DNA of 64,000 bases, taken from Lytechinus pictus. Its lineage: Eukaryota. The stretch lies in the NCBI RefSeq assembly GCF_037042905.1, contig NC_087245.1, positions 8,062,001 through 8,126,000 of the forward strand, written 5' to 3'. Every line of letters begins with the position of its first letter. Position 1 is the stretch's first letter. The position numbers were made by a program, and so were the translations under genes. Shown one piece after another: positions 53,398 to 58,046 of this stretch. Under the pieces are notes generated by a model. That model saw nothing but the letters and a program-made list of their open reading frames with translations, was not told the origin of the DNA and did not search any database.

Positions 53398-54291
53398 TCA
53401 AAGTTCTTCGATGAATTTTGGTTTCGGGAAGCCGAATATTTCAAAGTCCTTTTCATAAATCTTCCACAGTTTTTGTAAACTGTCCTTTGGCAAGATTCGG
53501 AAAGCTTTTTCAAACGTTTCAGTGCTGTTTGTGGGGTGACTATTACTTTTTGACGGATAGTCAACAAATGAGTCTAACTGCAAATCGGTTAGCATGTATT
53601 TTGCGTCATCTACGACAGTTTCTAGATTTCCCACGTAATCGTATTTAATCTTACACGGTGCACATATTTTGAACATTTCTTCCCAATGGTCGTCAAAGAA
53701 TGGCCGCTTAGGTTGAGTCAAAAATTTTACAAATTCTGTCCAAGTTATATTTTCACCCGTTCTCAGCTCTCTCGATGTTGCATGCGGTCTGAATTGCTTC
53801 ATGATGGTTTTTGCAAATCCCTGGAAGTATTTATCCTTTCGGTACTGAATAATATTCCCATATTTATTGTTGAATGCTGATAGCAAACGCACGAATGGAT
53901 TGCGCACGTAAATGAACTTCTTGTATGTTTCCAATTTATGTTGTCGATCTCGGGGTGTGAATCCAGCAAGGCGCTTCATGCCGTTGTTAAAGTGGACTTC
54001 ATCAGATGAAATCTCGCTTAACTTTTTCTTGCTCCCATTCAGTATCATCATCACCCTCTTCCAATTGCTACAGCCAACTTTAGGGACGAAACAATAGAGA
54101 AGATTATGTTTGTCATTAACGTATATATGGCGATATGTATTGTCTGTGATAGCGCCTCGAATCAATTCAGGATACTTGGCACAGCTTTGATCTGTCATCT
54201 CTCCTCTCAATCTGTTGATTTCACTTTGTATTGACATGAACTGATCTATGGTGTTATTATTTTCATTCGCTTTTTCCTTCATCTCATTGTC
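53398..54291 (-). CDS. Carbohydrate sulfotransferase (Sulfotransfer_2 family, CHST11/CHST8-14-like), catalytic last exon
   Basis: 5'-PSB motif LLYCFVPKVGCSNWKR, 3'-PB motif FIYVRNPFVRLLSAF, DDHW, CAPCKIKYDYVGNLET and YEKDFEIFGF. Acceptor tcgttttag precedes DNEMKEK, phase 0. Confidence 0.95.
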   Translation of the reverse strand, partial: DNEMKEKANENNNTIDQFMSIQSEINRLRGEMTDQSCAKYPELIRGAITDNTYRHIYVNDKHNLLYCFVPKVGCSNWKRVMMILNGSKKKLSEISSDEVHFNNGMKRLAGFTPRDRQHKLETYKKFIYVRNPFVRLLSAFNNKYGNIIQYRKDKYFQGFAKTIMKQFRPHATSRELRTGENITWTEFVKFLTQPKRPFFDDHWEEMFKICAPCKIKYDYVGNLETVVDDAKYMLTDLQLDSFVDYPSKSNSHPTNSTETFEKAFRILPKDSLQKLWKIYEKDFEIFGFPKPKFIEEL

Positions 54292-55811: not shown

Positions 55812-56449
55812 CTGAAAACAAATGGAAAAGTATATTAGCAATGTACTCTTCAATCAAAATTGAGTTTTACAAAATTCGATGCACTTGCCCCAAAACAAAA
55901 GACAATATATAAACCCATGATCTACTGTCGTGAAGCTAACAAGGCATAAATTAGATACGTTTTCTCTGCTGTCATGTGGATGCACAAACTATAGTTTGGG
56001 TATGGATGTGAGTGCATTTTACAGAACTCAATAAAAATATATAATTATAACATTGAAGTTTTATGATAACAAATTATACTAATATCAATTATAAAGAAGA
56101 CAATTTAAAAAAATTAACAATAATAATGATGTGGGGAAATAGTCAGTGTGATAATCATAGTAAGAAGTGATCAGACGCTAATACAGAAGGCGAAGGGGCA
56201 CATCCAACCCCCCCCCCCCCCCTTCCACATTCGTACACACAGCAACTAGCGCATCCTCTGGAAGTTTTAGGGGGAAATATTGAACCCTTGTAACGAAAAT
56301 GCTGTGCCTCGCCCATTCTGAAATCCTTGATCCGCCCCAGGAACTAACTATATATCAAGGGATGAGATAACCATAGAATTCTGGAAGAAGTCCGACTGCT
56401 GTTTGATAACAGAGCAAAAAGATGTTGAAAAAAAACATTTGTACATTAC

Positions 56450-56558
56450 CATCAAATGTCTGGCTTGTTGAAAGGTATACTGCCATGTAGACAAAGCAAA
56501 CCATGATGAGAGTCATCACACCCCATCGACGCATAAACCTTCCCCGTATCATCCTCAT
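56450..56558 (-). CDS. Carbohydrate sulfotransferase, first coding exon (type II membrane anchor)
   Basis: MRMIRGRFMRRWGVMTLIMVCFVYMAVYLSTSQTFD gives a basic cytoplasmic tail plus TM helix. Phase-1 gtaatg donor. An acceptor at 56565-56567 implies an upstream exon. Confidence 0.8.
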
Positions 56559-56761: not shown

Positions 56762-56945
56762 GTGTGTGTGTGTGTGTATTTGAGTTTTGTCAGACGTGTA
56801 TCAATCAGATATGATTATTTACGTCTGGGACCGACCTTTAACGTCACCATCCGAAAGACGTGACCAGGGCTCGAACCTCGAACCTCTGCATCAATTTGTA
56901 ACTTCCCCAAAGCTTGGATTACAGGCGCACGCCACAACGCCCAGT
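56762..56945 (-). mobile_element. SINE with 7SL (Alu-domain)-like head, Pol III B box, Deu-like core and (CA)n tail
   Basis: Minus strand: ACTGGGCGTTGTGGCGTGCGCCTGTAATCCAAGCT...GGTTCGAGCCC...GTCTTTCGGATGGTGACGTTAAAGGTCGGTCCC...(CA)n. Confidence 0.75.
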
Positions 56946-57629: not shown

Positions 57630-58046
57630 GTCTTGCTTATAGAGTACCAAAGTGATGACGTCACAAAAACCTTTGTTTGCATTTCAGCATTTTTTATAAC
57701 AAATTTTGGTAGAGCATGATGAAAACCCCCCACAACCCAAATTTGGTGGGAATCGGTCCATGGGGGCCTTAGATATGACCTCATGAATACATAATTAGCC
57801 CCATTGAAGTCAATGTATTATTGGCTTGGTTCTAAAAGGTACGAACCAAGCCAATAATACATTGACTTCAATGGGGCTAATTATGTATTCATGGGGTCAT
57901 ATCTAAGGCCCCCATGGACCGATTCCCACCAAATTTGGGTTGTGGGGGGTTTTCATCATGCTCTTCCAAAATATGGTATCAAATATGCTGAAATACAAAA
58001 AGTGAAAATTGATGATGTCACACTTCTGTACTCTATATAGAGCAAT
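57630..58046. repeat. Long inverted repeat (palindrome) with a 10-nt loop
   Basis: 57711-57832 pairs with 57843-57964 with one visible mismatch. Looser pairing continues outward. Confidence 0.92.

Follow-up and report, generated by a model that had tools for sequence, protein, structure and literature searches.

Structure and position of the element

The window, a 64,000-nucleotide stretch of genomic DNA from the sea urchin Lytechinus pictus, contains a carbohydrate sulfotransferase gene on its minus strand, with a catalytic exon that matches the Pfam family Sulfotransfer_2 (PF03567; 189.7 bits, E 1.3e-55). An ATG at position 56558 of the same strand starts a signal-anchor-like ORF, which has no match in a Pfam search and is a plausible first coding exon of this gene. 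Upstream of the putative start codon, and oriented in the same direction, lies a full-length copy of a SINE, a non-autonomous retroposon, whose tail ends 204 bases before the ATG. The first-pass annotation had placed this element about 200 bp upstream of the first exon of a sulfotransferase; the sulfotransferase and the distance are borne out, while the status of the exon stays at the level of plausibility. The parts of the element and its neighbours are as follows:

56762..56945, minus strand: SINE copy, full length, 184 bp, element base 1 at 56945
56900..56945, minus strand: 7SL-derived head, element bases 1-46, from the Metazoa_SRP alignment and the comparison with host 7SL genes
56932..56941, minus strand: A-box-like stretch from 7SL, element bases 5-14, putative promoter, the same as in the host 7SL genes
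56918..56923, minus strand: U-turn motif, separating helix 3 from helix 4, element bases 23-28, from the Rfam model alignment
56885..56899, minus strand: linker of 15 bases, element bases 47-61, beginning at the junction of 7SL and body
56867..56884, minus strand: B-box region, element bases 62-79, with GGTTCGAGCCC after an overlapping 7-base duplicate
56867-56877, minus strand: B box GGTTCGAGCCC, from the sequence motif
56825..56864, minus strand: Deu/Nin-like core fragment, element bases 82-121, from a by-eye likeness to the BivaMD-SINE1_TeGr row
56827-56858, minus strand: Deu-like motif named in the first-pass annotation, from the sequence
56791..56827, minus strand: 3' stem-loop, element bases 119-155, with an outer 7-bp stem CAGACGT/ACGTCTG and an inner stem
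56821-56827 and 56791-56797, minus strand: inverted-repeat arms CAGACGT and ACGTCTG of the outer stem, from the sequence
56777..56790, minus strand: terminal unique stretch ACAAAACTCAAATA, element bases 156-169, conserved in all aligned copies
56762..56776, minus strand: (CA)n tail, varying in length from copy to copy, from the sequence and the copy alignment
56355..56558, minus strand: putative first coding exon of the sulfotransferase gene, from the ORF list, exon status inferred
53398..54291, minus strand: catalytic exon of the carbohydrate sulfotransferase, Sulfotransfer_2

The boundaries of the SINE follow from the alignment of 46 copies with 50-bp flanks, in which the likeness begins at 56945 and stops with the (CA)n run at 56762. 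The extent and the strand proposed in the first-pass annotation are confirmed, and the hairpin and the (CA)n tail described there are both present. The copy differs from a consensus of 29 copies by a single base at element position 36. It is the only copy in the window, where all other blast matches to it are CA repeats. The 3' stem-loop is predicted in the minimum free energy fold and in the centroid fold alike, and the stability of the whole-element fold is not unusual (z -1.57; 11 of 200 shuffles are equally stable).

Outside the element, positions 57783-57892 of the window form a hairpin, an almost perfect palindrome about 110 bases long. Both of its strands match several miRNA precursor families, among them mir-2831 (55 bits) and mir-1677 (46.8 bits), with scores that stay below the gathering thresholds. 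A foldback or MITE repeat is the more probable identity of this hairpin, ahead of a miRNA gene.

Derivation of the head from the host 7SL RNA

The head of the element, in which the first-pass annotation had seen a resemblance to 7SL, is derived from the 7SL RNA of the host. The Rfam model Metazoa_SRP matches positions 56853-56945 on the minus strand with 32.6 bits; E is 4.9e-7 when 301 bases are searched and 1e-4 for the window as a whole. The score stays below the gathering score of 70, as is to be expected of a piece that lacks the S domain. Helix 2 is formed in the alignment by pairing of element bases 1-3 with bases 44-46 and encloses helix 3, the U-turn and helix 4, and the U-turn is aligned to a conserved single-stranded stretch of the model. 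The closure of helix 2 at bases 44-46 is also the end point of the 7SL likeness, and the head therefore comprises the 5' domain of the SRP Alu domain in full. The helix 5 portion of the model aligns poorly, with many non-standard pairs. Since the 3' part of 7SL, which contributes helix 5, is missing, a full Alu domain cannot form.

The 812-Mb assembly has a bindin gene (Pfam Bindin, 236.7 bits), a hallmark of sea urchins, and seven full-length 7SL genes scoring 272-283 bits. Contigs 10 and 1 carry three 7SL genes each, and the remaining one is on contig 12 (L037). In an alignment of the consensus of 29 SINE copies with the contig-12 gene, bases 1-30 are identical and 42 of 46 columns agree; the comparison with the six other genes gives 33 matches in 35 columns. 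As some of the bases in common are departures of the host 7SL from the Rfam consensus, the source of the head is the 7SL of this very lineage. This finding upholds the earlier proposal of a chimeric SINE with a 7SL head that is independent of Alu. A tRNA does not provide a better fit to the head: ARAGORN predicts no tRNA gene in the SINE, and Rfam matches up to E 10 include no tRNA family. The reading of the element as a member of a 7SL-headed SINE family is close to certain.

Origin of the body

The B box of the SINE agrees with the consensus GGTTCGANNCC and is retained in both subfamilies of the element. The "tRNA-type B box" of the first-pass annotation is a match at the level of the motif; a tRNA-derived parent was not found in the searches of the genome. 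The first 18 bases of the body occur without the head-side bases at three places genome-wide; a young copy that has lost 2 bases accounts for one of them, and old copies of the family for the other two. A word-7 blastn search with the body against about 190 kb of the genome recovers only family copies and one fragment in locus L008, and when about 300 kb are searched with a fuzzy core pattern, seven matches without an intact head result, all of them truncated, decayed or interrupted copies of the family. The fragment in L008 (locus positions about 300-350) comprises 27-31 bases across the junction of head and body and has an internal 22-base duplication. The same locus carries a tRNA-like stretch ending in GGGTTCGAATCTCACCC, about 100 bases beyond the fragment.

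The core of about 40 bases, which includes TCTTTCGGATGGTGACGTTAAAGGTCGGTCCC, was assigned to the Deu type in the first-pass annotation. By eye, about 31 of 40 bases, with three gaps, agree with the BivaMD-SINE1_TeGr row in supplementary file 2 of PMC4824008, and by comparison with this one published row the core is a candidate Deu fragment. An origin of the body from elsewhere in 7SL is unsupported, as the rest of 7SL beyond base 46 has no significant likeness to the SINE (the score is reached by 13-16 of 300 shuffles).

A T-arm-like hairpin with GGTTCGAGTC, a match to the B box that is followed by a T run, is located 19-43 bases 3' of six of the seven host 7SL genes (L031-L036) and is absent downstream of the contig-12 gene. 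Candidate identities for this hairpin are a Pol III element acting from downstream and the remnant of half a tRNA.

Size, age and retroposition of the family

The element belongs to a large dispersed family. A DNA search of the 812-Mb genome gave 1669 first-look candidates, and the 40 that were scored contain 44 SINE matches of 93-100% identity on 16 contigs. In an exhaustive pattern count, the exact junction of head and body occurs at 820 places scattered across the chromosomes, compared with none in a reversed control, and the copy number accordingly lies between 820 and more than 1600. A subfamily with a single B box is found at 317 exact-anchor places in a further exhaustive pattern search of the genome; among the matches listed, all except a few truncated ones include the head side of the junction. 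The form with the doubled B box is present in old copies. The loop of helix 4 is variable. Among the 100 of 820 junction matches that were listed and read, 39 have a short form, 25 and 12 have two forms with two additional bases, three have the variant of the window copy, two keep the 7SL-like letters, and 19 have other forms.

Seven of the 29 best copies are identical to the consensus, from which the copies of this set differ on average at 1.6 of 186 columns. The set is biased towards youth because its members were chosen as best matches to the window copy. As many copies are identical to the consensus, the family may still be active. At the other end of the age range, two copies of 75% and 77% identity retain a decayed head. 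Even very old copies are thus not headless, and the head goes far back in the history of the family, which is old, yet young at its tips.

The flanks of most of the 46 aligned copies are unrelated between loci, and the lengths of the (CA)n tails vary. The tail anchor, taken from ACAAAACTCAAATA, is preceded by differing upstream sequence at 84 places, about 18 of which, by reading, represent copies that break off at varied points. Of six such copies inspected, five are 5'-truncated, and the sixth is split by the insertion of a short element whose ends are inverted. This interruption, in L069, lies about 190 bases inside the copy; the inserted element has the terminal inverted repeats GGGGAGCG...CGCTCCCC and is probably a MITE-type DNA transposon.

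No direct repeat of at least 4 bases is present at the junctions of 33 of the 44 scored copies; nine have a 4-base repeat, one has a 5-base repeat and one lies inside a microsatellite. By eye, target duplications can be recognised for the full copy in L038 (11 bases with one mismatch) and for the 5'-truncated copy in L056 (10 bases). Among the signs of target-primed reverse transcription, 5' truncation is therefore seen, and target duplications are mostly lacking. In keeping with a SINE, the element is short, multi-copy and dispersed, has unrelated flanks, and its head comes from a small Pol III RNA gene.

Partner LINE and host factors

The first-pass annotation had raised the idea of a LINE sharing the 3' hairpin and the (CA)n tail. 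Such a LINE was found neither with genome patterns nor among the 3' ends of 13 LINEs. Searches for the tail anchor joined to non-SINE upstream sequence return only indel-bearing or truncated SINE copies, and the last 18 bases of the SINE occur with other upstream sequence at one place in the exhaustive genome pattern search. None of the 13 LINE 3' ends downstream of strong RVT_1 matches shares the SINE tail, and most of them end in poly(A); this result is weak, since 13 ends were sampled and 12239 RVT_1 candidates are present. A partner LINE that is stringent and of a non-L1 type appears likely. With regard to the host factors, the genome contains an exon of SRP14 (30.6 bits), and an exon-wise Pfam search of the genome for SRP9 found none, which is no proof of absence.

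Proposed mechanism and alternatives

The most probable explanation, to which we assign a probability of about 0.85, is that three parts were joined, namely a 46-base head from the host 7SL, a body that carries the B box and the short Deu-like core, and a tail of stem-loop and (CA)n repeat, and that the resulting SINE has spread via a LINE. According to this model, RNA polymerase III would start at element base 1, using the A-box-like stretch derived from 7SL together with the B box, which is located about 50-55 bases further downstream. Box A of 7SL comprises bases 6-15 (Kojima 2020, PMC7245038), a position that corresponds to element bases 5-14. Among the sequencing runs listed, 20 entries contain 5-22% of the sampled sequence words, roughly as much as the SINE itself makes up; they fall under two organism labels and one estuary metatranscriptome and do not bear on expression, polymorphism or host range. 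The 46-base head would fold as an Alu 5' domain, bind SRP9/14 and carry the RNA to ribosomes that make the LINE protein. A stringent LINE reverse transcriptase would then recognise the 3' stem-loop and the (CA)n tail and copy the SINE RNA into the nicked target.

The SRP9/14 step of this mechanism has about even odds. The 46-nt 5' Alu domain is described in PMC12199147 as necessary for Alu retrotransposition, as associating with SRP9/14 and as able to promote retrotransposition. The SRP9/14 step gains weight because this domain is the same piece, of the same length, as the head of the urchin SINE. The further proposal of a still-active invertebrate "Alu", which keeps only the 46-base 5' domain of 7SL and joins it to a foreign B box and the tail of a stringent LINE, is tentative, with odds slightly short of even. 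If it holds, ribosome docking mediated by SRP9/14 would also aid SINEs in their use of non-L1 LINEs, and the 3' half of the Alu domain would be dispensable in nature.

The 7SL piece could instead be nothing but a part of the promoter, a substitute for the A box that was acquired by chance template switching or recombination, with no role for SRP9/14 and with a LINE-type tail that suffices for mobility. The SINE indeed has neither helix 5 nor the 3' part of 7SL, and its tail consists of a stem-loop and a simple repeat, features that reportedly were enough for recognition in stringent LINE/SINE pairs in work on the eel UnaL2. Chimeric SINE heads are, moreover, common according to Kojima (2020, PMC7245038). 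A break exactly at the end of helix 2, which leaves a complete and self-contained 5' domain, speaks against this explanation, as does the retention of the head at divergences of up to 25% between copies. The retained domain is also the SRP9/14-binding piece needed for Alu mobility (PMC12199147). The promoter-only role deserves to be taken seriously, with the balance of evidence tilting against it. A role of the 7SL locus beyond the head has been considered as well: a deletion from base 47 to just past the end of the gene would fuse the head to the downstream B-box hairpin, so that head and B box both come from the same locus. The presence of GGTTCGAGTC behind six of the seven host 7SL genes fits this scenario, and the local score of 14 between the body and the downstream flank is reached by none of 500 shuffles for L031 and by two of 500 for L034. 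For L032 and L033, however, 11 and 26 of 500 shuffles reach the score, and when the B box is held fixed and 22 bases on each side are compared, the score is reached by 119 to 2000 of 2000 shuffles. As the sides of 22 bases are no more alike than shuffled sequence, the flank signal is the B-box consensus itself, and the deletion scenario is improbable.

The two other explanations touch on the nature of the head and of the copies. An ordinary tRNA-derived (SINE2) element of the Deu type, in which the resemblance to 7SL is due to chance or convergence, would account for the perfect B box and the Deu-like core, and a tRNA-derived DeuSINE of sea urchins, SINE2-3_SP, is on record (PMC4824008). It is nevertheless highly improbable. 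For the head it is refuted by the 30 leading bases, which are all identical to those of a host 7SL gene and include bases specific to the host, by the covariance match (E 1e-4) and by the lack of any match to tRNA models in ARAGORN and Rfam. That the copies were not retroposed at all but belong to a satellite or to duplicated blocks of larger size is barely conceivable for the family as a whole, in spite of a head-to-tail array of four copies in L026 and a dimer within a repeat that exceeds 3 kb and has 97% identity in L039-L042. For the bulk of the copies this origin is refuted by their unique, unrelated flanks, by 5'-truncated copies with variable (CA)n tails and by the dispersal of 820 junctions over the chromosomes.

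Relation to known SINEs

Alu is the most successful human retroposon. The 7SL-headed chimera of the sea urchin keeps only one end of the 7SL RNA. It has the 5' 7SL homology of a SINE1 element but not the 3' part of 7SL and the full Alu domain that all published 7SL SINEs possess in addition; it is therefore not a standard SINE1 but a variant of the 7SL-headed SINEs. The tRNA-like head of SINE2 elements is absent, and only the B box fits that class.

In two papers (PMC7245038, PMC13023118), three origins of 7SL SINEs are reported, all in vertebrates: supraprimates, shrew mole and hagfish. The hagfish element SINE1-1_EBu from Eptatretus burgeri was the first clear 7SL SINE outside Euarchontoglires (Kojima 2020, PMC7245038). 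Like the urchin SINE, it has a head from the 7SL of its own host that forms a chimera with parts of other SINEs or LINEs, and a simple-repeat tail instead of poly(A), which points to a non-L1 partner. Both families are young, comprise about 10^3 copies and originated independently of Alu. In contrast to the urchin SINE, SINE1-1_EBu contains both parts of 7SL, with 96 bases from the 5' one and about 44 from the 3' one, a central deletion and a full Alu domain; it is described with an RTE partner, target duplications of about 17 bp and no Deu-like core. The urchin SINE contains 7SL bases 1-46 only, has a B box that does not come from 7SL, mostly lacks target duplications and resides in an invertebrate host.

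The shrew-mole Urop is a 7SL-derived SINE, and none had previously been reported beyond supraprimates and hagfish, as stated by Kosushkin et al. (2026, PMC13023118). The same source describes all 7SL-derived SINEs as having arisen after a central deletion of about 183 nt. Urop and the Alu, FLAM and B1 elements of Euarchontoglires share with the urchin SINE a 7SL 5' end with the SRP9/14-binding 5' domain (PMC13023118, PMC7245038). Unlike the urchin SINE, they consist of 7SL sequence only, have A-rich tails, are moved by L1 and include many dimers, whereas the urchin SINE has no 3' part of 7SL and combines its head with a foreign body and a tail of stem-loop and (CA)n repeat. The Tu-type SINEs found in tree shrews and the bushbaby element GarnAlu, compared here by their description in PMC7245038, resemble it in being chimeras of 7SL and tRNA-type parts; they descend from the single 7SL SINE lineage of supraprimates and use L1.

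The likeness to DeuSINEs consists of the core of about 40 bases, which by eye resembles the start of the Deu/Nin row of the bivalve BivaMD-SINE1 (PMC4824008). DeuSINEs are described in the same source with tRNA-derived heads and 70-330 bases of Deu domain, in contrast to the 7SL head and the short likeness of the urchin SINE; SINE2-3_SP is known to us by its description.

The sea-urchin element is a genuine 7SL-headed SINE family that is unreported in the literature searched. Full-text searches on sea urchins, echinoderms and invertebrates found no paper on such a SINE; the repeat catalogues Dfam, Repbase and SINEBase lie outside this scope, and the family may already be included in Repbase or Dfam under another label. 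A further origin of 7SL SINEs, in an invertebrate and with a different build, would represent a natural replicate experiment on these elements. The family bears on the contribution of the 7SL piece to mobility, since it keeps the 46-base domain identified by deletion mapping as necessary for Alu, and its inferred LINE is not a poly(A)-reading L1. If still active, it would provide a SINE family in an experimentally tractable animal.

Copies in special genomic settings

Several copies are found in particular surroundings. An older copy, 81-92% identical to the young consensus, lies 34 bases upstream of the start of each of the three 7SL genes on contig 10 (L031, L035 and L036; locus positions about 1290-1500). 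These insertions divide a conserved upstream promoter region that is intact at the contig-1 genes L033 and L034. In L031, a second copy with an identical 5' flank is present about 410 bases further up. The 7SL upstream promoter might conceivably benefit these copies in a role as source genes.

Larger repeats also contain the element. The repeat that surrounds the dimer in L039-L042, reduced to a monomer in L040, is longer than 3 kb and about 97% identical across loci on contigs 18, 5, 2 and 4. The four copies of the head-to-tail array in L026 on contig 19 are connected by CTTA joints.

A tandem repeat of about 115 bp hosts copies at L017, L023, L024, L025 and L067, one of them 5'-truncated, and all of these copies are located within about 8-35 bases after the hairpin motif GGGTCTGGAGGAAAGACTACGCTATA of the repeat, which suggests a preferred target site. 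A similar motif also flanks the copies in L027, L030 and L042. In L023 and in L026 (copy at 2039), the same 9 bases, TAGCCCATA, directly precede element base 1, and L023 additionally contains a 9-base direct repeat of the 3' flank, 15 bases above TAGCCCATA. The shared TAGCCCATA hints at occasional transcripts that begin upstream in a source copy.
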